Source: Acidobacteriota bacterium (GTDB lineage Bacteria > Acidobacteriota > UBA890 > WLXD01). From it: a stretch of DNA of 64,000 nucleotides. The notes beneath the pieces are model-generated. The model did no database searches. It saw nothing but the letters and a program-made list of their open reading frames with translations, and was not told the DNA's origin. The stretch spans positions 704,001 to 768,000 of the forward strand of contig CBDBHB010000008.1 of NCBI GenBank assembly GCA_965205505.1. Reading direction: 5' to 3'. Below, in pieces: positions 4,408 to 54,195 of this stretch. Position 1 is the first letter of the stretch. The number at the start of each line of letters is the position of its first letter. The position numbers were made by a program, and so were the translations under genes.

Positions 4408-4453
4408 CCGGCCGTGGCGGAAGTGTGGCGGGCCACTAGTGCTCCTGCACTAG
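4405..4453 (+). repeat. Degenerate solo terminal repeat of the 45380 element plus a CTAG palindrome
   Basis: taaccggccgtggcggaagtgtggcgggcc resembles tagcaggccgtggtgaaagtgtggtgggtc; followed by ctagtgc-tcct-gcactag. Lies between two convergent stop codons. Confidence 0.6.
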
Positions 4454-5734
4454 TCTCGGCTGCCGGCGCGTCGCACCTGCTGCGCGATGAACTCGCGCTC
4501 GTGCTCGGTGCGCACCTGCGATAGCGCCTGGTCCAGGAACGTGCGGGCCGGCTCCTCGTAGCCGGCTCGCGCGTACAGGTTGGCGAGAACGGCGGCGACT
4601 GCATGGCTATGCGTCAACCTGCCTTCCTCGTGAATGGAGTCGACCAACGGAATCGCTGCCTCTGGCCCGTCTCGGTACGAGATCGCCACCGCCCGATTGA
4701 GCTCCACCAACGGCGCTGGCGCAACCTCCCGCAACCGGTCGTACAGACGGCAGATCGACTCCCAGTCGGTCTCTGCGAACGTTGGCGCCGAGCAATGGCG
4801 CGCAGCGATCGCCGCTTCGAGGTGAAAGCGGCTGGCGGCGACCGCTCCCATGGCCGAGGCTCGGGCGAGATCGCCATATCCGAGGCCGATCAACTCCTGG
4901 TCCCACAGCGATCGATCCTGCTGATCCAGCGGAACGAGACGCCCGGCATCGTCGAGCCGCGATCGCAGCCGAGCCGTGTTGAACCGCATGATCGCAAGAA
5001 GAGCGACGGTGTCGCTGCTGGCGAGCGCAGGGGTCTCCGCTAGAAGGATCGTCAGCCCCAGCGCGTCGCGACAGAGGTGCGTGAGAATCGGCTGATCGCT
5101 GGTCGACAGGTACCCCTCGTTGAACAGCAGGTACAGCGAGGTGTGAACGGTGGCCAGCGCCCCTGCCCGCTCTTCCTCTGGGGGTATGACGAACTCCAGG
5201 CTTCGTACCTGACGACGCGTTCGGTACAGACGTTTATTGATGGGTCGATTCGGTGGTGAGCAGGGCGCGCGCGACTGCCGGGACGCTGAGCCCGCACAGA
5301 GTCTTGAGGATGAGTGTGGTGCGGTTCTCAGGGGTTAGCGATTGATGACAGCACATGAAGATCATGCGCAGCTGGTCATCGCGAATGCCGTCCTCTTGGA
5401 AAGCCTCGTCGACCGTCGGCGACAGCGTCCACTCGCTGTCGAGGTAGACGGCCAGGTCGCTGGCGAAGGTGGGCCGCGTGCGCTCGCGTCGGATCACGTC
5501 GATGGCGCGATTGCGAGCGGTGGTCAACAACCAGGCACTCGGGTTGTCCGGAATCCCCTTGCGCGCCCAGCTGTCCATGGCGCGCACGAACGACTCCTGA
5601 ACGACATCCTCTGCCAGAGCAAGGTTGTGCGGGCCCAGGATGCGCGTCAAGACCGAAATCAGACGGCGCGACTCGTGCCGGAACAGCAGCTCGATCTCGT
5701 CATTCGTTGCCGCGCTAGTATCCGGTGCTTCCAT
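4450..5734 (-). pseudogene. ECF sigma-70 factor with long C-terminal extension (ECF42/DUF6596-TPR type), one +1 frameshift near 5241
   Basis: Region 2 (LAEDVVQE..W..GIPDNPSAWLLTTARNRAID), 'DDQLRMIFMCCH'; after an extra C in 'acccatc' reads INKRLYR...LYLLFNEGY...PLDQQDRSLWD...TDWESI..LYDRL..VELNRAVA. Confidence 0.85.
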
Positions 5735-11131: not shown

Positions 11132-12028
11132 ATGCATACACCGGATTCGGCCTCGATCATCGGCGCCGGGACGATGGGACGGCGCATCGCCTTCGGATGC
11201 GTCATACGCGGCGTAGGGGTGCGCATCTTCGACACCGACCCGGTGGCACTTGAAGACGCGGTTGACGCCGTGTAGCAGCTCGTTCGCGAGCGTGTCGCGG
11301 ACGGTCGGCTATCGTCAGAGGCACTTGACCAGTCGGCGCAACTGCTCGCGCCCAGCGACTCGCTCGCTAGTTGCGTCGCCGATAGCCCGCTGGTGATCGA
11401 GACGGTTGACGAGCGGCTCGAGTTGAAGCGTGAGGTATTCGCCAAGATCGACCGTTATGCTCCGGCCGACGCGCTGATCGTGTCCAACACGTCCTCGCTG
11501 CCGGCGTCGACGCTCGCACCGGCAACCGGGCGCCCGGCCAATTTCCTCAACTTCAACTTCGGCCCACCCGATGACCTCAAGGTCGAGATCATGGGTCACT
11601 CAGGAACGGATCCGGCGAGGGTCAAACAGCTCGTCGCCTTCGTAGCGCGTCTCGGTCTGGTGCCGATTGTTGCCAGCCGAGAGATCTAGGGCTACGTCAG
11701 CAATCGTGTTTGGCGGGCGGTCAAGAAGGAGGTGCTGTTCCTGCTCGACCAGGGATACTCCACGCCGGAGGATATCGATCGCGGCTGGATGCTGGATTGG
11801 AACACGCCGATCGGGCCCTGTGGCGCGATGGATCAGATCGGCCTCGACGTGGTGCGCGACATCGAGCAGGTGTATTACGAGACCAGCGGCGATCCGTCCG
11901 ACCGTCCGCCGCAGTTGCTCCACGACATGATCGCAAACGGCAAACTCGGTGAGAAATCCGGCGAGGGCTTCTACCGCTACCCCGATCCTGCTTATATGCG
12001 CCCGGGATGGAGAACGAGAGTCGAATGA
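11132..12028 (+). pseudogene. 3-hydroxyacyl-CoA dehydrogenase family protein interrupted by two in-frame TAG codons (11273-11275, 11687-11689)
   Basis: GAGTMG Rossmann motif, VIETVDERLELKREVF, SNTSSL, REI*GYVSNRVW, PIGPCGAMDQIGLD, GKLGEKSGEGFY, all in one frame; GGAGG RBS; stop overlaps the next ATG. Confidence 0.88.
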
Positions 12029-13024: not shown

Positions 13025-14503
13025 ATGGTGGCGGCCGAGCGGCGTCGCCCGGTGAGCGTCGAACGCGCCACGCTGAAGAAGGACATCGAGCTCTGGTCGC
13101 TGTTCAGCCTTTCGTTCGGCACCATCGTCGGCGTCGGTTGGATCACGGTCATGGGCTCTTGGCTGGGCGCCGCCGGCTCGATCGGCTCGATCCTGGCGTT
13201 TGCCGGCGGCGGCGCCGTGATCTTGCTGATCGGGCTCTGCTACGCGGAGATCGCCGGCATGTACCCGGTCTCCGGTGGAGAGGTAGCCTACGTCTACGAA
13301 ACCTACGGAACACGCCTCAGCTTCGCGACTGGATGGCTGCTCGCCTACAGCTACATCTCGACGACGAGCTTCGAGGCAGTTTCGATCGGGTGGCTCCTAT
13401 CGGCGATCATGCCGGGCTTCGGTGGGCCCGTGGTCTATTCAGTTCTGGGTGCCGATGTACGTCTGTGGGACCTTGTCCTGGGCCTATCGTTGATGGGCAT
13501 GATCACGATCATCAACTACCGCGGCGGCAAGACCACCACACGCTTCCAGGACATCATGACGGTGACGCTGCTGGCCGCCACCGCGGTCTTCGTGAGCGTG
13601 GCGCTGATCGGCGGCGACTTCGGGAATCTGGAGCCCACGTTCGTCGGAGCCACCTCGGGCGGAGTGGTGTTCGGAATCCTGACCGTCATGGCCGCGACCC
13701 CCTTCTTTTTGGCCGGCTTCGACACCATTCCGCAGGCGATGGGAGAGCTGGCGGAGGGCGTCCACCTGCGCCTGCTGCCAAAGATAATGGCCCTTTCGAT
13801 CGGCCTGTCGATCGTCTTCTATTGCCTGGTGATCCTCGCGGCGGCGGTGAGCTTGCCACGGGCGGAGCTCCTGGCCTTCGACCTGCCCGTAGCCGGAGCT
13901 CTAGAAGCCGCGTTTGAATCTGCCTTCATGGGCCGGCTTGTTCTGTTCGCGGGCCTATGCGGCCTGATCACCACGTGGAACGCGATCTTCTTCGCCTCTA
14001 CACGCGTCATCTTCTCGTTGGGTCGGGCGTACATGATCCCTCCGGTGTTCGGGCGCGTGCACCCGAGGTACGGATCTCCCACAGTCGCGGTGGTCTTCGT
14101 AGGGATCGTGGGCGCCATCGGTGCCCTCTTCGGTCGCAACGCCATCGGCGTGATCGTCAGCACATCGGGGGCATCGTTCGCGCTGGTGTTCGCGGTCGTG
14201 GTGCTCGGCATCGCCAAGCTGCGAAGCACACATCCGCAACACGAGCGACCCTATCGACTCCCCGTTGGCCGCCCACTAATGGTGATCGGCGCCATCTTCG
14301 GCGTCGCACTGTTCTTGATGGCGATGTACGAGCCCTACATCGCCGCGGGCAACCGAGTACCTCCTGAGTGGACTGCACTGATCGTGTGGGTGGTGCTCGG
14401 CGCTCTGTTCTACTGGTCCGCGACCGGATTGCGCTGCCAGATCAGTGAAAAAGACCGTCGTTGGCTGGTGCTCAACGAGGGTGCAGCAACGCCACGAGAC
14501 TGA
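13025..14503 (+). CDS. APC family amino acid permease
   Basis: GTIVGVG, YAEIAGMYPVSGG, AGFD, RVIFSLGR, FGRVHPRYGSP; about 12 TM segments. Confidence 0.92.
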   Translation: MVAAERRRPVSVERATLKKDIELWSLFSLSFGTIVGVGWITVMGSWLGAAGSIGSILAFAGGGAVILLIGLCYAEIAGMYPVSGGEVAYVYETYGTRLSFATGWLLAYSYISTTSFEAVSIGWLLSAIMPGFGGPVVYSVLGADVRLWDLVLGLSLMGMITIINYRGGKTTTRFQDIMTVTLLAATAVFVSVALIGGDFGNLEPTFVGATSGGVVFGILTVMAATPFFLAGFDTIPQAMGELAEGVHLRLLPKIMALSIGLSIVFYCLVILAAAVSLPRAELLAFDLPVAGALEAAFESAFMGRLVLFAGLCGLITTWNAIFFASTRVIFSLGRAYMIPPVFGRVHPRYGSPTVAVVFVGIVGAIGALFGRNAIGVIVSTSGASFALVFAVVVLGIAKLRSTHPQHERPYRLPVGRPLMVIGAIFGVALFLMAMYEPYIAAGNRVPPEWTALIVWVVLGALFYWSATGLRCQISEKDRRWLVLNEGAATPRD

Positions 14504-14515
14504 AGGAGCGGTCGC

Positions 14516-16851
14516 ATGACAAGCGAGCAGGCACCGATGACCTTGCCAAACCAGCCCCGAGCCAGGCACAGTGGCGCCCGCTACACGGTGGCGGCGCTGG
14601 TGGCCGCAAGCGCGCTCGCAGGCGCCCTCACAAGCAGCGCGCGCCGGCGGCACCGACACGCCTTTCTTCGACGTCTACGACGCCGGCGTGCAGGTGGCCG
14701 AGCTGGCCATCGGGCCGGATCGCGTCAGCATTCGCAAGAAGGACGTTGCCGACAACTCGTGGGCCGGCGACGGAGGCCGGGCTAGGCGATATCGGCCACA
14801 ACGAGGTGTTCGAGCTGACCGGCTCGATCCGCCACCTGCCCGCCAAGCTCGCCGGCCTTGCGGCCATCGACTGGTGGTCGTTAGTGGCCGTCGGCTGGCC
14901 CGATGCCGACACCATCTACACACGCCATCGCGAGCTCGAGGGCGATGTGGGCAGCAAAACCACCACTGGCGTCTACTGGGCCGAAAAGGACGCCAGCCAA
15001 CCGCTGGATCTGGTGTTCGACCGCGAAAACCGCTTGATCGCCGGAGTCGATGTCAGCCGCGATCGAGTCATGGTGCGTCGCGGGTATGAGGCGTTCACCA
15101 CCGTCGAGCGTTGGCGCGACGCCGGCGTGGCGCAACCCGAATACGGCTTTCGTGCGCTGCAGAAGGCCCTGGTCGCGATGTCCGACGGTGTTCGGCTCGA
15201 CACCCTCGTGTACCTACCGGTCGGACCGAGCGCCGGCCCGTTTCCGACCATCTTCGTGCGTTCCCCCTACGGCATCGGAAACCTGATCAACAACTACTGG
15301 TACCACGCCGTCAGAGGCTATGCGCTCGTATTCCAGGCGGCTCGCGGCACCTCGTTTCTCGATCCGGAGAACCGCTCCGAGGGCGTCTGGGAAGAAATGG
15401 TGCGCGAGCCACAGGACGGCGGCGAAGCGCTCCAGTGGATCGTCGAGCAACCCTGGTCGAACGGCGATGTCTGCATGCAGGGCGGCTCCTACGTCGGCTA
15501 CACGCAGTGGTCGGTATCGATGGCCGACAACCCGGCGCTGAAATGCATCGTGCCCGAGGTCTCGATGGGCACCGCGTTCGCCGACCAGCCGTTCATGGGC
15601 GGTACCTTCGTGACCGGCTCTGCCTACTACATGTTCTAGATGCTCGAGCACGAGCTGCTTCCGGAGCGCCGCTGGAGCGAGGTGCTACGCCACCGGCCGC
15701 TGATCGACATGGACAACTTTGCCATCGGCAGCAACGTGCCGGGGTGGGACACGTCGCTATCGCACTGGGGTAACGACGAGTACTGGAAGCAGCAGGATTG
15801 GCACGACCGCGATCTCGAGCGCGACTTCGCCACGCTTCAGATCAGCGGTTGGTTCGACGACGACTTCCCCGGCACGCGTAGCAACTGGGCGTTGATGCAA
15901 AGCGTCGGGCGGCAGCCGCAACGGTTGATCATCGGTCCATGGCGACACGGCTACAACAACGACCGGCGGCTCAACGGCTACTCGTATGGTCCCGATTCGC
16001 TACGCGACGATATCCGGCTCCTCAAGCAGAAGTGGTATGACCGGTTTCTCGGGGGCATGGAAAACGATGTGACCGAGCCCGTCGTCGAGTACTTCATGCT
16101 CGGAGAGAATCGCTGGCGCCAAAGCACCGCGTGGCCACCGCCGGAAGCCAGCGATCAGCGCTGGTACCTGCACGGCGGCGGCCTGGCGAATCGATCGTTC
16201 GCCGACGGCGCGTTGAGCCTCGAGCCCCCGGCAGCGGCACAGCCCCCCGAGCGCTACCTCTACGACCCCGACGACCCGACGCCGAACTGGTACAACTTCG
16301 ACCTCATGGAGAGCTGGTCGGACGTGCAGTCCTTTCCCTACGACTTCAAGGACATCGAGGCCCGTCACGACGTCGTCGTCTACACCTCGCCGCCGCTCCA
16401 GGAGGACCTCACGATCGCCGGCAACATCATGCTCGAGCTGTACGCCTCGACCGACGTGCGCGATACCGATTGGTGGGTGCATGTGTCCGACGTCGACGCC
16501 GAGCTGCGGTCGCATCGGCTGACCGTGGGCGTGCTCCGGGCGCGCTTCCGCAACCTCGACGACCCCGAATACCACGTGTTTGGCTCGAACTTCGAGCGCG
16601 AGGACCTGCTGTCGGGGAACCTCGACGAGGTCGTTCGCTACCGCGTCAGCGCTCCGGCGATCGCCAACACGTTCAAGGCGGGCCACCGTGTCCGCGTGGC
16701 GGTGATGAACGCCCTCGACAACTACTCGTTCCCCAACTCGAACACCGGCGGCGACGAGGCGCGCGTCACGGAAACCGTCACCGGGACGATGGTGATCCAC
16801 CACACGCCCGAGCACCCGAGCCATATCGTGCTGCCGGTGATGCCGCGCTAA
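14516..16851 (+). pseudogene. CocE/NonD (S15-like) hydrolase with two frameshifts (~14640, ~14770) and an in-frame TAG at 15637-15639
   Basis: MSDGVRLDT, RSPYG, GGSYVG nucleophile, GWFDD, IGPWRH, YTSPPL; 14461..15639 and 15640..16851 abut in frame (YYMF*MLEH). Confidence 0.85.
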
Positions 16852-28581: not shown

Positions 28582-28669
28582 GCGATAGGCTCGCTGTACG
28601 AAGGGTCGATCCTGACAGTGGAGATTGGAAGCCACGTGACGATTGATGCCTCGACCTGGAGGTGCGCGG

Positions 28670-29575
28670 GTGAGTGAGCCGATCGAGTACATTACACGCA
28701 TCGGAGAAAAATACGCGGCGCTCGGCTACGGCATCTACCAATGGGCCCATGTCGAGGAGCCTCCACCCTGGACGCCGCTGGACAAGCCGCTGTCGGAGTG
28801 CCGTCTGGGTTTGCTTGCCTCCGGAGGCGTCTACGTCGCCGGCCAGCGCGCCTTCCACTACAAGGACGACGTCTCCTGTCGCACCATCCCGACCGATGTC
28901 GACACGGCGGATCTCCGCGCCACACATTTCGCCTACGACCTCGAGCCTGCGCGCCGTGATCCGAACGTCGTCTTTCCGATCGATACGCTGAGGGGTCTGG
29001 TGGAGGACGGCGTGATCGGCGCCCTCGCGGACAACGCATACACGTTCATGGGAGGGATCTACTCATCACGACTGGCGCGCGATGAGGTGGCCCCTGAGTT
29101 GACCCGACTCCTGCTCGAGGACCAGGTCGACGTGGCGCTACTGGTACCGGTGTGACCGGTTTGCCATCAGTCGGTCGGACTGATCGCGAGGGAAATCGAA
29201 GGCGCCGGAATCTCCACTTTGTGCATGGCAAGCGCGCTGGACATCATGCAGGCGGCCAACCCGCCACGCATCGCGTTCGTCGACTATCCGCTCGGGCACA
29301 CGGCGGGAAAGCCGAACGAGCCGGAGCTGCAGCGCGACATCCTCAGCCAGACCCTGGCAGGCCTGACGTCGTTGACATCACCCGGGACGGTGTCGCTGCC
29401 GTTCAAGTGGAGCGAGGACGAGGCCTGGAAGGAAACGGCCGAACGTGGCCCGGACGAACGCCGGCCGCGCCACGATACGCCGCAGTATCAGAGCGATGCA
29501 GATCGCCTGCTCGCCGAGGCCGGCGCCCCGTCCTGCGCCGTGTGCGCTGACGACGCGCGGGCATCCCCGGCCTAG
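28670..29575 (+). CDS. GrdB/PrdB-like selenoprotein (Sec codon TGA at 29153-29155)
   Basis: PWTPLDKPLSECRLGLLASGG, RDPNVVFPIDTL, DVALLVPV-U-PVCHQSVGLIAREIEGAGISTL, PPR...YPLG; ORFs 28643..29155 and 29219..29575 share a frame; GGAGG RBS before GTG 28670. Confidence 0.9.
29166..29184 (+). promoter_or_regulatory. Bacterial SECIS-like hairpin
   Basis: atcagtc-ggtcg-gactgat: perfect 7-bp stem, G-led loop starting 18 nt after the UGA. Confidence 0.75.
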
Positions 29576-29587
29576 ACCGACCCGCTC

Positions 29588-31090
29588 GTGCGCGCCGAGG
29601 GAACCCGACTGTTCGGACACCCGCGAGCCGTGTTCAGCCTGTCGCTCATCGGTCTTTGGTACATCGCCGCCTACGCTGGCATCGTCGGGCATCTGGTGCT
29701 CTTCCTCACGGCGGCGCCAGAAGACTACGGCTTCGGCTGGACGGACGACGAGGCGATCCGTCTTTACGGATACTTTGGCGGCACCGTGCACCTGGCCACG
29801 TTGTTCGGCGGATGGATATCCGACGCATTCACCGGCAAGCGCAGGGCGGCGATCCTGGGTCTCGCGTGCGCCACGGTCGCCATCCTGCTCTTCAGCGCCG
29901 TGACCTCGATTCCCGCCCTCGTGGGGTCGATCTACGACGCTCCGGTGCGCGACGTGACGCTCGACGCCGAGATCTCGATGGGTCGGATCAGCATGGGCGC
30001 GGAGTAAACTGCGCGCCTGGACCAGACGCTGGCCGCCTCCGGAGCAGACGAGGCCCTGCGCAGGACGGTCTGGCGCGCCTACGGACTGACGACCCTCGCG
30101 TTCTACCTGAGCATCGCGCTCTTCGCCTGGAGCTACGGCCTCCTGATGCCCAGCCTGACGGCGCTCATCGGCGTGTCGTACGCCGACGAGCCCGGGCATC
30201 GTGAAACCGGCTACACGCTGTTTTTCATGATGCTGAACCTCGGGTTCATCGTCGGTGCGCTCATTGCCGGTTCACTGCTGACGCGCTTCGGCTGGCGAGC
30301 GGCGCTGCTGTCCACGGGCATCCTGGCCGTCGTCGCCTTGCTCGACTTGCTGCGCGTGGGAAAACAGCTGGAGCCGGGCGCCGACGGATCAGCCAAGACG
30401 CGCACCGAGAGTGAGCCGTTCTCCTGGACGCTGACGCGGCCGGAGCGCAATCGAGTGGTAGTGATCGCCGTGCTGTCCACCTGCTATCTGCTGTTCGTCG
30501 CCGCGTTCGAGCAGTGGGGCGGCTCGTTCAGCCTTTACGTGCAGAACAACATCCACCGCGTCGTAGGTGGTTTCGATGTCCCTACCCTGTGGATTCACTC
30601 GTCACAATCGCTCTTCGTGATCCTGCTGGGGCCGGCGATGATCTGGATGTGGGCGCGCGCGTCGACACGCTACGGAGCCATCTCGGCGCCGAACAAGATG
30701 GCCATCGGCATGCTCGCCACAGCGGTCGCGTTCATCTGAATCGCATTCTCGGCAGCTCAAAACGCCGCCGATCCGGGCACCAAGGCGAGCCTGTTCTGGC
30801 CGCTGACCTACTACTGGATCGTCACCATCGGCCAGCTTGCGGTGATTCCGGTGGGTAACGCGTTCATCAGCAAGGAAGCGCCAGAGCGGCTAGTCGGCAC
30901 GCTGATGGGCCTGTGGATGCTGTTCGGCGGGATCGGCATCTGGCTCTCCGGTCAGATCGGAGCGCTCACCCAGTCGCTCGGTGCGTTCGCAGTGTTCGGC
31001 GGCATCGCGGTCGGCGCGGCAGCCACGGCCCTGGCGATGTTCGCCACCAGGAACTGGCTGAGCGGACTGCTGGACGAGACGTCTATCTGA
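29588..31090 (+). pseudogene. POT/PTR2 family peptide MFS transporter with in-frame TAA (30005-30007) and TGA (30737-30739)
   Basis: LFGHPRA, GGWISDAFTGKRRA, GYTLFFM..NLG, FEQWGGS, KEAPERL; three listed ORFs in one frame, colinear with intact paralog 34995..36494. Confidence 0.85.
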
Positions 31091-32267
31091 CGCTCGGAAT
31101 GCTCCGATCGATCCCGCGCGGGATCTGCTTGTCAGCGTCGTAGAAAGGCAGCATGACGATCTCCCCGATATGGGACGCGCCATCCGGGTCCTGCACCTCG
31201 ACCTGCTTGCCGAGCCAATCACCGCACTCGGCGAAGAGGGCGAAGCCAATGCCATACTGCAGGAACGGCGACCAGCAGCCGGCGGTTACGCGACCGACTG
31301 CCCGACCCTCGACCATGACCTGCCCATAGGGCGCCGCCGCGAGGCTCTTGACCCCGTATAGCCGGAGGCTTCGATCAGCCGTCTCCAGTGCCTGCTTGCC
31401 GATGAAGTCGGCCTTGTCCATGTCGACGAACTTCCCCAGGCCGGCTTGGAACGGGTTTTGCGCCAGGGTCATGTCGTTGCCGTTGCTCAGGATGCCAGCC
31501 TCGATGCGGCGGCTCTCCATCGAGTCCATCGCGGTGCCGACCATGTCGAACGACTTGCCGGCCTCCAAGATGTGGTTCCACAACGCCGGCCCGTCGATGT
31601 CGCTTTCGATCGTATACACCTCCCAGCCAAGCTCACCGGTCCAGCCGGTGCGTGACAACCAGAGCGGCTCGCCTCCCATGGTGCACTCGGTGACGGCGAA
31701 GAACTTGAACGGGTCGGGGGCCGCGCCGTCGCAGGCCGCATCGAGCACTTCCATCGATCGCGGGCCTTGCACCTGCAGCACCCACGAATCCGGGTCGCTG
31801 ACGGTCACGTCCATCTCCAGACCGAGCGCCATCACCCAGCTGAAGAACTCACCGTTCGCCAGCACGTACCAGAATCGGTCCTCGGCGAGCCGCATGAGCA
31901 CGCCGTCCATCATGATGCCGCCGTCGGGATAGCAGGCAATGGCGTAGTTGGCCCGACCTGGTCTGAGCTTCGAAATGTCGCGCGCGAACACGCGGTTCAG
32001 CAGGCGCTCGGCGTCCGGCCCGCCAATCTCGATCGGGTGCTCCGGGACGTCGTAGAGCACCGCCTCACGCCGTAGCTTCCAGTAGTTGACCACCGGATCG
32101 TCGCCGATCGCCTCGATCGCGAGGCGGCCGCTGTAGACGCTGTACACAGTGTCCGGCGTCCGCGTGCAGGGGAAGAACGGAGTCCGCGCGAACCCCCACT
32201 CCATCAGCTTGATATCGGGCTCGAGGTTCTGCGGGTCAGCGTGGGTTGCCCGATCTTGGTCGCTCAT
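31083..32267 (-). CDS. GcvT/DmdA-like aminomethyltransferase family protein
   Basis: LYDVPE, IGGPDA, DGGIMMDG, LQVQGPRS, SRTGWTGELGWE, RRIEAG, DFIGKQAL, PFYD. Confidence 0.9.
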   Translation of the reverse strand: MSDQDRATHADPQNLEPDIKLMEWGFARTPFFPCTRTPDTVYSVYSGRLAIEAIGDDPVVNYWKLRREAVLYDVPEHPIEIGGPDAERLLNRVFARDISKLRPGRANYAIACYPDGGIMMDGVLMRLAEDRFWYVLANGEFFSWVMALGLEMDVTVSDPDSWVLQVQGPRSMEVLDAACDGAAPDPFKFFAVTECTMGGEPLWLSRTGWTGELGWEVYTIESDIDGPALWNHILEAGKSFDMVGTAMDSMESRRIEAGILSNGNDMTLAQNPFQAGLGKFVDMDKADFIGKQALETADRSLRLYGVKSLAAAPYGQVMVEGRAVGRVTAGCWSPFLQYGIGFALFAECGDWLGKQVEVQDPDGASHIGEIVMLPFYDADKQIPRGIDRSIPSVR

Positions 32268-33448
32268 CCTTCCGCCCTCGGCCTTTCGGGAATGTTCGTG
32301 TCGAGGGCCCGGGAAATCTTCTTCTCGGGGTCGTAGAACGGTAACGAAACCACCTCGGCGTCGTGCAGCTGCCCGTCACTGTCGGACACCGACACGGTGG
32401 CGCCGAGCCAATCACCAGGTTCCTTGAACCGAACGTAGCCCGTGCCATGACCCAGGTACGGCGACCAGGCGCTCGTCGTGATCGTGCCGACCGAGTTGCC
32501 ACCCTGGAGCACCGCCGAAGCCTGGCTGGGCGCAGCGGTGAGGCACTTGATGCCGAATATCAGCGGCCGCCGATCCGCCGCTGCCAGCGCTTCCTTGCCG
32601 ATGAAATCGTCCTTGCTCAGGTCAACGAACTTGCCTATGCCTGCCTGGTAGGGCGTCATTGACTCGTCGAAGTCGCTCTTGTTGTCGAGAATACCTGCCT
32701 CGATACGACGGATGTTCATCGAGTCCAGGCCGGTGGCTATGATCTCCTGCCCCTCGCCGGCCTTCAGGATGTGATCCCACAGCGCCGGCCCGTCGACGCC
32801 GGGGTCCCGAGTGTAGATCTCCCAACCCATCTCGCTGGTCCAACCGGTGCGCGACAGGTACAGGGGTTGCCCGCCCATGGTGCACTCGGTGACCGCAAAG
32901 TAGGCGAAGGGATCGGGGGCACCATCGTCGCAGGCGGCATCGAGCACCTGCATCGCGCGCGGTCCCCCCACCTGCAGCACCCAGGAGCTCGGATCGCTCA
33001 CGTGCACGTCCATGTCCATGCCGTGGGCGATGAGCCAGGTGACAAACTCGCCGTTGGCGAGCACATACCAGAAGCGATCGGGCGCCAATCGCATCAGGAT
33101 GCCGTCCATCAGGGTGCCGCCATCGGGCAGGCAGGCGATCCCGTACCCGCAGCGTCCCGGCATCAACTTCGAAATATCGCGGACAAAGACTTTGTTGAGC
33201 AGGCGCTCGGCGTCGGGTCCGGCGATCTCGATGGGATGTTCCGGAACGTTGTATAAGACCACCTTCTGCCGCAGATTCCAGTACCTCTCCTGCGGATCGT
33301 CGCCGACCGAGACGACGGCCATTCTGCCGCTGTACGGTCCTCCGTAGCGCGTATCAGGACCGTGCGTGCACTCGAAGAAGGGCGTCGGAGCGGCGCCGTG
33401 GAAGTGAAGCGGAGCGATCGATTCAGGGACAGGCCGTTCGTCCGACAT
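32264..33448 (-). CDS. GcvT/DmdA-like aminomethyltransferase family protein (tandem paralog)
   Basis: Same motif set (SRTGWTSEMGWE, RRIEAG, PFYDPEK); ATGA overlap with the downstream paralog. Confidence 0.9.
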   Translation of the reverse strand: MSDERPVPESIAPLHFHGAAPTPFFECTHGPDTRYGGPYSGRMAVVSVGDDPQERYWNLRQKVVLYNVPEHPIEIAGPDAERLLNKVFVRDISKLMPGRCGYGIACLPDGGTLMDGILMRLAPDRFWYVLANGEFVTWLIAHGMDMDVHVSDPSSWVLQVGGPRAMQVLDAACDDGAPDPFAYFAVTECTMGGQPLYLSRTGWTSEMGWEIYTRDPGVDGPALWDHILKAGEGQEIIATGLDSMNIRRIEAGILDNKSDFDESMTPYQAGIGKFVDLSKDDFIGKEALAAADRRPLIFGIKCLTAAPSQASAVLQGGNSVGTITTSAWSPYLGHGTGYVRFKEPGDWLGATVSVSDSDGQLHDAEVVSLPFYDPEKKISRALDTNIPERPRAEG

Positions 33449-33549
33449 GGCTTTCTCTCGACATGGGGTAGCAGTGGCAGCAGACTTTATACGGGCCACG
33501 CGCTACGAGACAGCCAGCCGCGCTAGGACTTTTCGGCTGCCGATCGCGG

Positions 33550-34994: not shown

Positions 34995-36494
34995 ATGATG
35001 TCGCGTACCGACGGTTTCTTCGATCACCCGCGCCAGATCTACACGTTGGCGCACGTATCGCTGTGGCATGTCGCCGCCTACGCGGGATTGATCGGCCATC
35101 TGGTGCTATTCATCACCGCGACACCGCGAGACTACGGATATGGGTGGACCGGCGCCGAGGCCGTACGCCTGTACGGGCTGTTCACCGGCCTGGTCCAGTC
35201 CTCGCCGTTGATCGGCGGCTGGATCGCCGACGCGTTCATCGGCAAGCGTCGGGCAGCGATCCTGGGGTTGTGGCTACAAACCGTACCCATCTTCGTGCTT
35301 GCCGGCGTCGGCACGATCCCGGCGCTCGTCGGCTCCTACTACGACGCGCCGGTCCGGCAAGTGCTGCTGAACGCCGAGGTGCCAATCGCACAACTGACTC
35401 TCGACGAGGCACAGTCCGGGCGCATCGCAGAGGCAGTCGCCAACCTGGCCACGGGCGGCGGCGGCGGTGCCGCGCTGCAATCGGCGGTCGAGGCTGCGTA
35501 CGGAGCAATGACGCTGGCATTCTACGGCTCCCTGTTGGTGTTCATCATCGGGTACGGCCTCCAGGTCCCGACGCTGGCTGCGATGGTCGGACCTCTGTAC
35601 GAGGGATCGAGCGCCAAGCGCGAGGGTGGATACACGCTGTTGTTCATGGCCGCCATGCTCGGCTTCATCATCGGTGCGCTGATTTCCGGCACCATCGCCA
35701 GCCGCATGGGTTGGGTCGAGGGCCTGGCCTCGACAGGCGTGATGATGGCCCTGTCGGCGATTGTGCTGACCCGCATCCAGCTGCCGATCTCGAAGGTTCC
35801 GGAGGCATCGGGAAAGACCGGCGGCGGCCGACCCCTATTCTCGCTCACGCATGGCGAACGCCGTCGAATCGCAGCGATCTGCGCATTGTGTCTTGCCTAC
35901 TTCGTGTTCATCGCCGCCTTCGAGCAGTGGGGCGGCTCGTTCAGCCTGTACGTGCAGAACACAAGCGACCGGGTCGTTGCAGGTTTCGAGGTGCCGACGC
36001 TCTGGATCCACTCGGCGCAAGCGCTATTCGTGATCATCGTCGGCCCCATCATGCTCGCCGTCTGGGCTAGCCTGGAGGGCAGAGGTTTGCACCTGACGCC
36101 ACCGACGAAGATGGCAATCGGGCTGCTGTTCACCGCGTGCGCCTTCCTGATCATGTCGGGGACCCTGCCCTCACGGGGTGGCGACCTGATCACCAAGACT
36201 AGCCTGCTCTGGCCCTTGGCCTACTACTGGGTTGTCACGTTCGGTCAAATGGCGGTGCTACCGATCGGCCAGGCATTCGTGAGCCGGGAAGCCCCCGAGC
36301 GACTGGCGAGCACGATGATGGGGGCGTGGCTTCTATTTGGCGGTGTCGGGATCTGGGTATCCGGACAAATCGGAGCGCTCACCGAACCGTTCGGCATCCG
36401 AGCCGTATACCTCGGCATCGCTGCGGGCACGGCTCTAGCCGCCGTCGTGGCCTTGTCGTTCAGGAAGCGGCTAATGCGTCTGCTCGCGGAGTGA
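34995..36494 (+). CDS. POT/PTR2 family peptide MFS transporter
   Basis: FFDHPR, GGWIADAFIGKRRA, VGPLYE....REGGYTL, FEQWGGS, KMAIG, APERLASTMMG. Confidence 0.88.
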   Translation: MMSRTDGFFDHPRQIYTLAHVSLWHVAAYAGLIGHLVLFITATPRDYGYGWTGAEAVRLYGLFTGLVQSSPLIGGWIADAFIGKRRAAILGLWLQTVPIFVLAGVGTIPALVGSYYDAPVRQVLLNAEVPIAQLTLDEAQSGRIAEAVANLATGGGGGAALQSAVEAAYGAMTLAFYGSLLVFIIGYGLQVPTLAAMVGPLYEGSSAKREGGYTLLFMAAMLGFIIGALISGTIASRMGWVEGLASTGVMMALSAIVLTRIQLPISKVPEASGKTGGGRPLFSLTHGERRRIAAICALCLAYFVFIAAFEQWGGSFSLYVQNTSDRVVAGFEVPTLWIHSAQALFVIIVGPIMLAVWASLEGRGLHLTPPTKMAIGLLFTACAFLIMSGTLPSRGGDLITKTSLLWPLAYYWVVTFGQMAVLPIGQAFVSREAPERLASTMMGAWLLFGGVGIWVSGQIGALTEPFGIRAVYLGIAAGTALAAVVALSFRKRLMRLLAE

Positions 36495-46739: not shown

Positions 46740-47782
46740 ATGACAAGTGTAACGATTGGACTGAACGTAAGCGACCGGTACAGCCGTATGTGCGTGCTCG
46801 ACAGTAAGGGCAGGGTGATGGAGGAAGGGCGGGTGAGGACGAGCCCGGAGGGGCTGGCGAGGCGGTTCGGGTGCGAGGAGCCCGCTCGAGTTAGTGCTGG
46901 AGTTGGAACGCACTCGCCGTGGATGAGTGAGCAGTTGAAGCAACTGGGTCATGAGGTGCTGGTGGCTAACCCGAGGCGGCTGAAGCTGATCTATGGCGAG
47001 CACGGACCGACCGGTTGGATGCCGAGCACCTGGCACGAGTGGGCAGAATGGACCCAAAGCTGCTTAAGACGGTGCAGCATCGAGGCAGACAAGCGCGAGC
47101 GGATCTAGCCGTGATTCGGAGCCGAGATGCTCTGGTAAAGAGCCGCACGCAGTTGGTGAGCCATGTGCGTGGTGCGGTCAAGTCGGCCGGTTGTCGTATT
47201 CCCAGGTGCTCGACGCCGGCGTTCGCGCGCACCGCGCCAGAGCACATACCGGAGCGGCTCAAGGGAGCGCTCGAGCCGGTGCTTGAAACGATCGCCATGC
47301 TGACGGGCAACATCCAGCAATACGAGCGTCAGATCGTGCAGCTGTGCCAGGGGCGATACCCGGAGACACAGCAGCTCCAGCAAGTGGCCGGGGTCGGAGC
47401 TCTGACCGCACTGGCGTATGTGCTGACGCTCGAGGAGCCGGAACGGTTCAATACCTCCAGAGCCGTGGGCCCGTACCTGGGACTGAGACCGAAGAAACGG
47501 CAGTCGGGGGACAAGGACCCTGCGCTACGAATAACCAAGGCGGGCGACAAAATGCTCCGACGCCTGTTGGTGGGCTCGGCGCATTACATCCTGGGCCCCT
47601 TCGGGCCCGATACTGAGCTCAGACGCTGGGGGCTCAAGCTGGCCGGACGCGGTGGTCCTCATGGCAACAAAAAGGCAGCAGTTGCTGTCGCCCGTAAGCT
47701 CGCCGTTGTGCTGCACCGACTGTGGCTGAGTGGAGACGAGTACGAACCGTTGCGCGCACCTGTAGAGGTTTCAGCAGCATGA
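46740..47782 (+). pseudogene. IS110 transposase/recombinase (DEDD RuvC-like + Transposase_20), disrupted
   Basis: TIGLNVS (expected GLD), scrambled V.LE.GTHS, VLVANP, frameshift near 47005 before TDRLDAE, GVGALTA, YLGLRP...SG, ITKAGDKMLRRLL, AVAVARKL; AAGGAGG RBS. Confidence 0.92.
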
Positions 47783-52189: not shown

Positions 52190-54195
52190 TTAGTCCGGCT
52201 TCAGGCGTACCGCCCACAGGCCGGAGTAAAAGTCCGAGAAGAAAATGGTGCCCTTGTGGTGCTGCGGGCCCCAGCTGAAGACGGCGTTCGGGAAGTAACC
52301 GTCCGGATCAAACGGCAGGAAGTAGGCGATCTCTCGACCCTGCCGATACAGATCACCCATGAGCTCGCCGGATATGTCGACAACCCGAAGACCGCCCTGG
52401 ATGTATGCGATATAGAGAATCTCGTCGTGCACCCACAGGTTGTGGCTGCCACCTTCCGGGACCTTGTAGCGCGCCACTTCATGAGGCGTATCCCACTCGT
52501 CCCACTCGACGAAATGGACCCAACCGGCCTGACGTTCGGGCTCGTCCGGGCTTCCTGGCTGGCCACCGCGCAGCACGGCTTCGTCGCCGGCGATCATGTA
52601 GAAGCGATTCGCCGACTTGCTGTGGAACGGCAGCGCCGCATGGCTCCGCCGCTCGGGTTCGTGTAGCTGCCGAGCATCACCGGGTTGCGCGGTGAGCCTC
52701 CTTGACCCCCTCCACCAACATCGACCGCCACCACCCCGTCGGACCAATTGGACGAGTAGGCAATGCCATCCTCGACCCAGACATCGTGAATTGCGTGGCC
52801 TGGAGTTTCGAGCTCGAAGCGCGCCACGCGATACGGGTTGCGCGGATCCTCGATGTTGATGATCTCGTAGTATTGGCCCGCGCCTACAGCGTAAACGTGG
52901 TTGTCATAGACGAACGCGTTGTGAACGCCGCCGGTGAGATGCTGGTCGTAGCTCGACAGGATGCGCATGCCGTCCTGCGGGCTGGAGACGTCGAGAATGA
53001 CGATGCCGTTACGCCGGCTGGAAGCGCCTTCGCGGGTCAGCACGGCGATGCGACCGTCTTCGGAGATCTTGACGTCGTTGACCGTGCGCGCATCGATGCG
53101 GACTGAGTCGATCATCGCGATGGCGCTCGGGTCGGTGACGTCCCACATGAAGGCCTGACCGTCGGCGCCCCAGGTACCGGTGATGGCTTAGTCGCGGCCG
53201 TCGGTTCCCTCCCAGACCCATAGGTCCGAGGTACCGCGATCGCTGACCCGACCCTGCCCGACGAGCTCGATCTCGCGCTTGGCATCGCGCGGGCGGATGC
53301 TGACCTGCAGCTGCGTGTGGTGCGTCCCCGAGATCGCCATGACGGTGTACTCGCCAGGCAGGTCGGCAACAAAGCGACCGTCAGGCGCGACGAGTCCGGA
53401 CCCGGGCTCGCCGCGCTCGTGCTCGGTCGTTCGAGCGCTGAACGCATACTCGACAGGAGCCCCCTCCACTGCATCGCCGGAAGCATCAAGCGGCCTAGCC
53501 TCGAAGTGGATCACGTCGCCCGTACGAGCCTCGGTGGTCGACGCGGTGAGGCGCAGCGATGTAGTTGGATTGGGGGCCACTTCAATCGAAAGGCGGGGCG
53601 TGGCTGCGGCGCCGACGGCGCCTTCAACCCGGGCCGTTATCGTTGCACTACCGGCCGCCAGCAGCTTCAGGCGTCCGAAGCGACCCACCTCGGCGATTGC
53701 CGGATCGCTGCTGCTCAGCTGCACGTCATCTTCGCGGCTTGCTTCGGTAGCATCGGTTACCGCGAGTTCCAGACGCACGGTGGTCCCTTCGTAGAAGCGC
53801 TCCGGTGGATCGACGAAGACAACTGTGGCGATGGCGGGCTTCGGCACGACGACGCGGACCCGTGCCTCCAGCGGCGGCGTTTCCTCTCCGCCGCCCTCGG
53901 CCGGCCCCCTCGGCACTCGAACCAGGATCGTGTGGCTCCCAGAGCGAATCGCGCTCACCACTCCGTCGCTACTAACGCTGACGCTGCGGGCCGCCAACGA
54001 CAGAAACACCGCCCGGGCATCGTCCACCGGGTCACCGGCCGCATCGGTGATGTTGGCGTGAAGGGAGCCGCTCTCGCCGACCTCCAACCGCAGCTCGGCG
54101 GGCTCTACGATGAGGCTATGGGCGACGCTTCGTACGGCGTCCTGCTGTGCCCCTATCGCTAGAGTCGCCGCGGCGATCACGGCATATCGCAACAT
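52190..54195 (-). pseudogene. Ig-like (Big_2) + LVIVD-repeat exported protein with in-frame TAA at 53188-53190 and a frameshift near 52650
   Basis: Ig repeats (LSSSDPAIAEV), then TSDLWVWEGTDGRD*AITGTWG, ARTVNDVK, TREGASSR, GGVHN, HDVWV, SHNLW, GGLRVVDISGEL. Confidence 0.82.

Follow-up and report, generated by a model that had tools for sequence, protein, structure and literature searches.

A predicted PrdB-like selenoprotein of an Acidobacteriota bacterium and its partnerless subfamily

Described relatives and the marine PrdB pool

In D-proline reductase, PrdB uses its selenocysteine (Sec) to attack proline, bound to the pyruvoyl group of PrdA, at the alpha carbon; PrdB is regenerated by PrdC, and its U151C variant is inactive (PMC11229817). 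For a homolog of GrdB, an attack on fluoroacetate that needs no Schiff base, yet still involves an alpha subunit, has been proposed (PMC10838667). Genes assigned to PrdB are numerous in the sea: the Sargasso Sea selenoproteome comprises 42 PrdB selenoprotein genes (PMC1088965) and the GOS dataset 235 (PMC2398784), and PrdB was counted among the most abundant selenoproteins of the sea, whereas the Sargasso set held only one GrdA (PMC1088965). This abundance sits poorly with a clostridial Stickland enzyme. The accessible parts of two reviews (PMC9312934, PMC13188914) deal with PrdB (TIGR04483) only, and those of bioRxiv 2022.07.06.499078 do not treat the subfamily described here.

The gene analysed here lies in a 64,000-nucleotide stretch of an Acidobacteriota genome (hereafter, the window). 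The initial annotation had presented it as a hidden selenoprotein; however, members of its subfamily were already included, as 'PrdB' or 'proline reductase', in the supplements of marine surveys of 2005 and 2008. A motif search revealed one entry labelled PrdB in the Sargasso supplement with UPVCHQSVGL, PQYQ and a tail CxxC (PMC1088965), and the GOS supplement contains 30 occurrences of GGIYS and 17 of CHQSVGL, of which the three of each that were viewed stand under the heading 'Proline reductase' (PMC2398784). The subfamily is therefore not new as a selenoprotein, and the gene is one more member of a catalogued, uncharacterised group. No characterisation of a partnerless PrdB-like protein was found in the literature covered, to which subscription journals largely do not belong.

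The gene, its in-frame TGA codon and the SECIS hairpin

The gene occupies positions 28670..29575 (+) and encodes a protein of 301 aa if read through one in-frame TGA at 29153..29155 (+), the predicted Sec162 codon, which falls in a TGA/TGC column across relatives; in this translation, residue 162 sits in VPV-U-PVCHQSVGLIAREIE (PVCHQ after U). Reading with table 11 divides the gene into ORFs 28643-29155 and 29219-29575, the split that the initial annotation had predicted for standard annotation, and its joining of two ORFs across a single TGA into a product of ~301 aa was reproduced by the read-through. A Shine-Dalgarno-like GGAGG, read from the sequence, is located at 28658..28662 (+), 7 nt upstream of the GTG start; a promoter scan found none, and an Rfam search gave 0 matches. 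The same GTG start is present in the nearest of the best 80 of at least 560 relatives, a locus of an Acidobacteriota MAG (L001) that is 83% identical to and syntenic with the window. The U162-P-V-C165-H166 motif (29153..29167, +) lies at the start of helix 163-178, and C165 and H166 do not vary among 69 aligned rows, H86 and D67 being likewise invariant in the alignment.

A protein search found 879 matches, 120 of which were listed; among these 120, 90 stop exactly before the TGA codon, 29 are full-length with Cys (26) or Thr (3) at column 162, and one is partial. A scan of GTDB confirmed at least 560 relatives, the best 80 loci of which were used for comparison. These 80 include 10 named phyla, with 17 loci lacking an assignment, and carry TGA (78 loci) or TGC (2 loci) at the Sec column, which coincides in the alignment with the U column of two annotated PrdB proteins. 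The initial expectation that homologs would have U or C here thus holds for these loci and for 26 of the 29 full-length proteins, and fails for the three with Thr. Cys is used at position 162 by whole clades. The Thr forms (TxxC) are P0002, P0003 and P0010, the first of which is placed away from the other two in the trees and also has no tail CxxC; Thr in 3 of 29 full-length matches (among the 120 listed of 879) means that position 162 is not always a nucleophile. Relative to L001, dN/dS was 0.169 before and 0.166 after the TGA, indicating equal purifying selection on both halves, and eight intact neighbours in the window gave values of 0.07-0.19, enclosing those of both halves, a comparison that would miss a very recent loss of function.

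A predicted bacterial SECIS hairpin is located at 29166..29184 (+), spanning 11-29 nt after the UGA; its 7-bp stem (29166-29172 with 29178-29184) encloses a 5-nt G-led loop, the first G of which is 18 nt past the TGA. Taken alone, the folding energy of the hairpin does not exceed chance (z = -1.48; 15 of 200 shuffles of 60 nt fold equally well). In the 78 TGA loci (among the best 80 of at least 560), the relatives' form has an 8-bp stem and a GUN triloop, and pairing in the 8-pair stem reaches 99.1% over 67 distinct rows, against 1-45% for slid controls. Doubly changed stem cells number 16 in these 67 rows versus 3.6 in shuffles, with 0 of 500 shuffles as high, counts that are inflated by related rows; further pair types in the stem showed no excess over shuffles. 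The four stem codons are nearly frozen over 79 rows, i.e., the 78 TGA loci and the window (CAG 78/79, TCC 78/79, GGA 72/79, CTG 78/79), and occupy ranks 1-4 for the lowest synonymous variation among 111 conserved columns, while the stem is not kept in the two TGC loci of the best 80 (of at least 560). The 7-bp hairpin of the initial annotation was confirmed, and covariation across relatives supports its assignment as a SECIS. The window copy alone of the 79 rows has a G-G mismatch at the closing pair, so that a 5-nt loop replaces the GUN triloop; 7 pairs remain. In bacterial SECIS elements the loop begins with G, a rule that the G-led loop of the window fits.

Sec recoding is supported by the TGA/TGC column, the hairpin covariation and the dN/dS of both halves. 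On this comparative evidence, there is hardly any doubt that TGA encodes Sec in the family, and it is very probably still decoded in this genome.

Two other explanations of the codon were considered and rejected. A nonsense mutation or sequencing error is ruled out, since TGA is common to 78 of the best 80 relatives (of at least 560). A changed genetic code in which TGA specifies Trp or Gly is ruled out by Cys or Thr in the column of the homologs; normal genes in the window end in TGA, and the remaining in-frame breaks there are TAG (three), TAA (one) and TGA (one), both of which argue against an altered code.

Placement in the family, extensions and predicted structure

The best NCBIfam model for the protein is PrdB (TIGR04483), with 171.5 bits (E 2e-50), below the curated cut-off of 300; real PrdBs, used as controls, scored 310-453 bits against this model. 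The Pfam family GRDB (PF07355) gave 39.4 bits over aa 75-159, above its gathering score of 22. The GrdB, GrdF and GrdH models yielded 58-62 bits over profile positions of about 261-426 only (the C-terminal half), with cut-offs of 602-800, and the broad subfamily model yielded 58 bits versus a cut-off of 65. Sequence identity was 33% to L. salivarius PrdB and 27% to a GrdB. Of the initial description as GrdB/PrdB-like, the PrdB-like part stands, resting on the best NCBIfam model, and the GrdB-like part does not, the protein falling below both curated cut-offs.

A phylogenetic tree was built for 53 chosen rows from 214 core columns, leaving out the extensions (LG+G4). In it, the subfamily forms one side of a branch with 100/98 support, the sister subfamily and PrdB being supported by 100/100 each, and it is not nested inside the PrdB clade. 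An AU test did not reject the subfamily and PrdB as a single clade (p = 0.075). Monophyly of the Sec clade received 95 in a full-length quick tree and was unresolved on the core columns. Judged from these sequence comparisons, the gene product is neither PrdB nor GrdB proper, being distinct by score, tree position, gene context and architecture, and a PrdB-type ancestry is supported.

Three members of the sister subfamily (P0136, P0137 and P0141) carry C-terminal AMP-binding (acyl-CoA ligase) domains, two recognised by Pfam and the third by eye; these joined forms could be real fusions or merged ORFs. A weak search for forms of 609-2000 aa (fusions) found none. P0188, P0200, P0202, P0207, P0213, P0180 and P0247 form a further PrdB-like group; its proteins have about 390-420 aa, the C-terminal part being unannotated, and sequences like them occur with Sec in the marine supplements.

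The protein has two extensions that PrdB lacks. The N-terminal one (about aa 1-37 with a helix at 7-17; 28670..28780, +) contains conserved Y7, Y15, G19, Y23 and W25, and the C-terminal one (29408..29530, +) contains W247, W253, D262, R264, R267, P271, Y273, Q274 and D278. The tail C289-x-x-C292 (29534..29545, +), at the start of a low-confidence helix, is a candidate resolving pair or metal site. The C-terminal CxxC mentioned in the initial annotation was confirmed at these residues and is conserved in 64 of the best 80 loci (of at least 560), all 64 of them among the 78 TGA loci; on this alignment it carries greater weight than could be seen from the window. The other 14 of the 78 Sec loci lack it, including L001, where one of the two Cys is kept. 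It is found in none of the 29 full-length Cys/Thr matches (120 listed of 879) and in none of 31 Cys/Thr rows (2 loci and 29 proteins, some redundant), the sampling being biased toward non-Sec full-length entries because databases truncate Sec forms. On the tree, there are 1-2 independent Sec/tail pairs, which is not significant, and co-evolution of the two is therefore not demonstrated.

AlphaFold (AF2) predicted a confident alpha/beta domain (pLDDT 90.9 with 30 rows and 93.7 with 69 rows), in which U162 follows strand 155-159 and precedes helix 163-178; the tail falls in a low-confidence helix (pLDDT 64 for aa 291-300). A sequence search of solved structures found no relative, Foldseek with the model returned nothing at E <= 0.001, and the best VIA-align matches (Z 8.5, rmsd 3.3, 135 aligned) were generic alpha/beta domains.

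Gene neighbourhood, proposed function and known systems

PrdA, C, D, E and F from an annotated prd cluster and GrdA, C, D and G from a grd cluster were used as tblastn queries against the 64-kb window and the best 80 loci (of at least 560; 1.32 Mb), with flanks of up to 10 kb, some contigs being shorter. Neither the Prd nor the Grd queries found anything, so the lack of partner genes in the window, as initially stated, extends to these loci; the positive control, a PrdA remnant next to prdB in L081, was detected. It is highly probable that the subfamily protein is PrdA-independent.

Two unannotated features came to light in the reference loci. At L081:10717-11979, on a P. acidaminophilum megaplasmid, a PrdA-like stretch without the N-terminal ~180 aa lies upstream of prdB, and L086:1354-8666, in the Photobacterium sp. 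DA100 record of a gammaproteobacterium, contains a glycine/sarcosine reductase cluster that includes selD.

For the neighbourhood analysis, 1196 heuristically called genes were clustered and 146 were scanned with Pfam (69 cluster representatives and 77 immediate neighbours). No conserved neighbour emerged, the top cluster besides the gene itself being a generic SDR present in 20 of 81 stretches, and no pathway signal was seen, the scanned genes coming from generic families of catabolism or housekeeping. The window shares its GcvT-like, CocE and amidohydrolase neighbours with L001 only (best 80 of at least 560). At 31083-33499 (-), the window has two tandem GcvT-like folate-dependent methyltransferases, of which L001 has one copy; their best matches are the C-terminal part of TMAO demethylase and DmdA, both below cut-off.

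We propose, with a probability of about 0.6, that the gene encodes a true selenoprotein from a widespread subfamily, which has PrdB's fold and UxxC site and works without the pyruvoyl subunit PrdA. Its likeliest role would be that of a selenol reductase that is self-contained, acts on a small molecule already in activated form and uses the tail CxxC as its recycling relay; Sec decoding is the sole well-supported element of this scheme, and the substrate and relay are what we infer. The hairpin would recruit SelB and Sec-tRNA, giving the 301-aa protein with Sec162, a step with strong comparative support that follows the known SelB/SECIS pathway. As in PrdB and GrdB chemistry, the Sec162 selenolate would then attack an electrophile. 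Since there is no pyruvoyl partner for amine activation, the substrate would have to bring its own leaving group or oxidised centre; candidates are onium compounds (betaine, sulfonium), alkyl halides, and molecules with an S-S, S=O or N-O bond, and an alkyl-onium or halide substrate, as opposed to a general thiol-redox one, is less likely than not. The pocket, which in Prd is supplied by PrdA, may here be made up of the two terminal extensions. Cys165 would free the product, leaving a selenenylsulfide, and in the weakest step the mobile C289/C292 tail might reduce it and be re-reduced by thioredoxin or a cellular thiol, replacing PrdC. The C-terminal cysteines of MsrA-type enzymes provide an analogy for such a relay to thioredoxin, and we give even odds to this function of the tail CxxC. 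Among the points against the proposal, the known pyruvoyl-free reductases retain an alpha subunit (FarE, GrdI; PMC10838667), and Cys stands at position 162 in whole clades, in spite of the inactivity of PrdB U151C; the Thr forms and the Sec loci without the tail, L001 included, count against it as well.

The natural Cys and Thr forms suggest a chemistry easier than proline ring opening and make a general thiol-redox function the main rival. The protein would then be a thiol-disulfide or peroxide oxidoreductase on the PrdB scaffold (thioredoxin- or peroxiredoxin-like), without carbon-cleaving chemistry. This could explain why U, C and T are all seen at position 162 beside the invariant C165, why Cys forms are common, why the clade occurs in 10 named phyla (best 80 of at least 560) without pathway context, and why marine 'PrdB' is abundant alongside Prx/Trx-like selenoproteins (PMC2398784). 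However, the predicted fold is not that of thioredoxin, judging from the helix/strand order and the best structural matches to generic alpha/beta domains, and the many invariant aromatic and charged residues of the extensions suggest a specific pocket; we regard this alternative as unlikely.

The state of the window raises the question of whether its copy of a family selenoprotein is an undecoded relic in an eroding genome. Five other broken genes were seen in a survey that was not exhaustive, three with five in-frame stops in total and two frameshifted. They are a POT-family peptide transporter directly downstream of the gene (29588-31090, +; TAA 30005, TGA 30737), a 3-hydroxyacyl-CoA dehydrogenase (11135-12028; TAG 11273, TAG 11687), a CocE hydrolase (14461-16851; TAG 15637), an ECF sigma factor (4450-5734; frameshift) and an unassigned gene (about 52190-53148; frameshift); a piece of an IS110-type transposase is located at 47015-47782, and the genome looks to be decaying. 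The G-G mismatch peculiar to this copy points the same way, as does the lack of selA, selB, selC, selD and tRNA-Sec within the 64-kb window. Nevertheless, sel genes are also missing from the best 80 loci (of at least 560), and their local absence is therefore uninformative; the 301 codons contain no lesion besides the TGA, dN/dS is normal in both halves (a very recent loss would escape), and the hairpin retains 7 pairs and a G-led loop, all of which makes a relic improbable. An intact POT paralog, 51% identical to the broken one, lies at 34995-36494, and L001 has no POT gene at the corresponding place.

A true B subunit of D-proline, glycine or betaine reductase, with its PrdA or GrdE partner elsewhere in the genome, is very improbable: PrdB is the top NCBIfam match, the identity to L. 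salivarius PrdB reaches 33% and a sister relationship with PrdB is not rejected, but the score of 171 bits lies below the cut-off and below all the real PrdBs, GrdB's N-terminal ~210-260 aa and UxxCxxC are missing, and partners are adjacent in the fetched prd and grd loci and in 0 of the best 80 loci here (of at least 560). A metal- or metalloid-binding protein with U/C162, C165, H166, H86 and the tail CxxC as ligands would account for the invariant H86, D67, C165 and H166 and the two CxxC-type pairs, but it is scarcely credible, as the same core residues are found in PrdB, a reductase, the tail is frequently lost, and no metal-resistance context was seen in the neighbourhood.

On a speculative and rather unlikely reading, the selenoproteins called 'PrdB' that abound in sea and soil would make up a distinct single-chain class of enzyme cleaving C-N+, C-S+ or C-halogen bonds outside Stickland fermenters, with small pre-activated molecules such as betaines, sulfonium osmolytes and haloalkanoates as substrates and recycling through a built-in CxxC arm. 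In that case, a selenoprotein that is among the most frequent in the ocean would have carried the wrong label for some twenty years and would catalyse an unrecognised catabolic reaction. Within the marine PrdB pool, at least one part forms a clade of its own that lacks partners and has a conserved SECIS and a C-terminal CxxC; 'D-proline reductase' names given to these genes in metagenomes (many from JGI) are then probably wrong. As Sec, Cys and Thr forms all occur in nature, the function can be assayed directly, with no need to express a Sec protein.

With PrdB (TIGR04483; PF07355), the subfamily shares the core (aa 28-247), the Sec column, the UxxC-H motif and a SECIS directly after the UGA. 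It differs in being about 60 aa longer, with conserved extensions and the CxxC tail, in having an MGGIYS loop where PrdB has MGGGG, in its natural Cys and Thr forms, and in forming a separate clade below the equivalog cut-off; prdA/C/D/E/F are not near its genes (window and best 80 of at least 560 loci). GrdB, GrdF and GrdH (TIGR01917, NF040794, NF040795) and FarB share a distant homology in the C-terminal half and the Sec nucleophile, whereas the subfamily is without the N-terminal ~210-260 aa of GrdB (about 435 aa), has UxxCHQS rather than UxxCxxC, and lacks the grdA/C/D/E neighbours of these systems (window and best 80 of at least 560 loci). The marine UxxC entries named 'Proline reductase (PrdB)' share MGGIYS, PxUPVCHQSVGL, PQYQ and the tail CxxC (PMC1088965, PMC2398784); the available parts of these sources pool the subfamily with other clades as PrdB and make no remark on the missing partners or the tail. 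Roseomonas and Haematobacter have proteins named 'glycine/sarcosine/betaine reductase selenoprotein B family protein' in RefSeq, which belong to the PTNRS sister subfamily; they are also about 300 aa long, with the same N-terminal extension and no prd/grd partners in about 17 kb. They fall in a sister clade with different active-site loops and a different C-terminus, and both have Cys.
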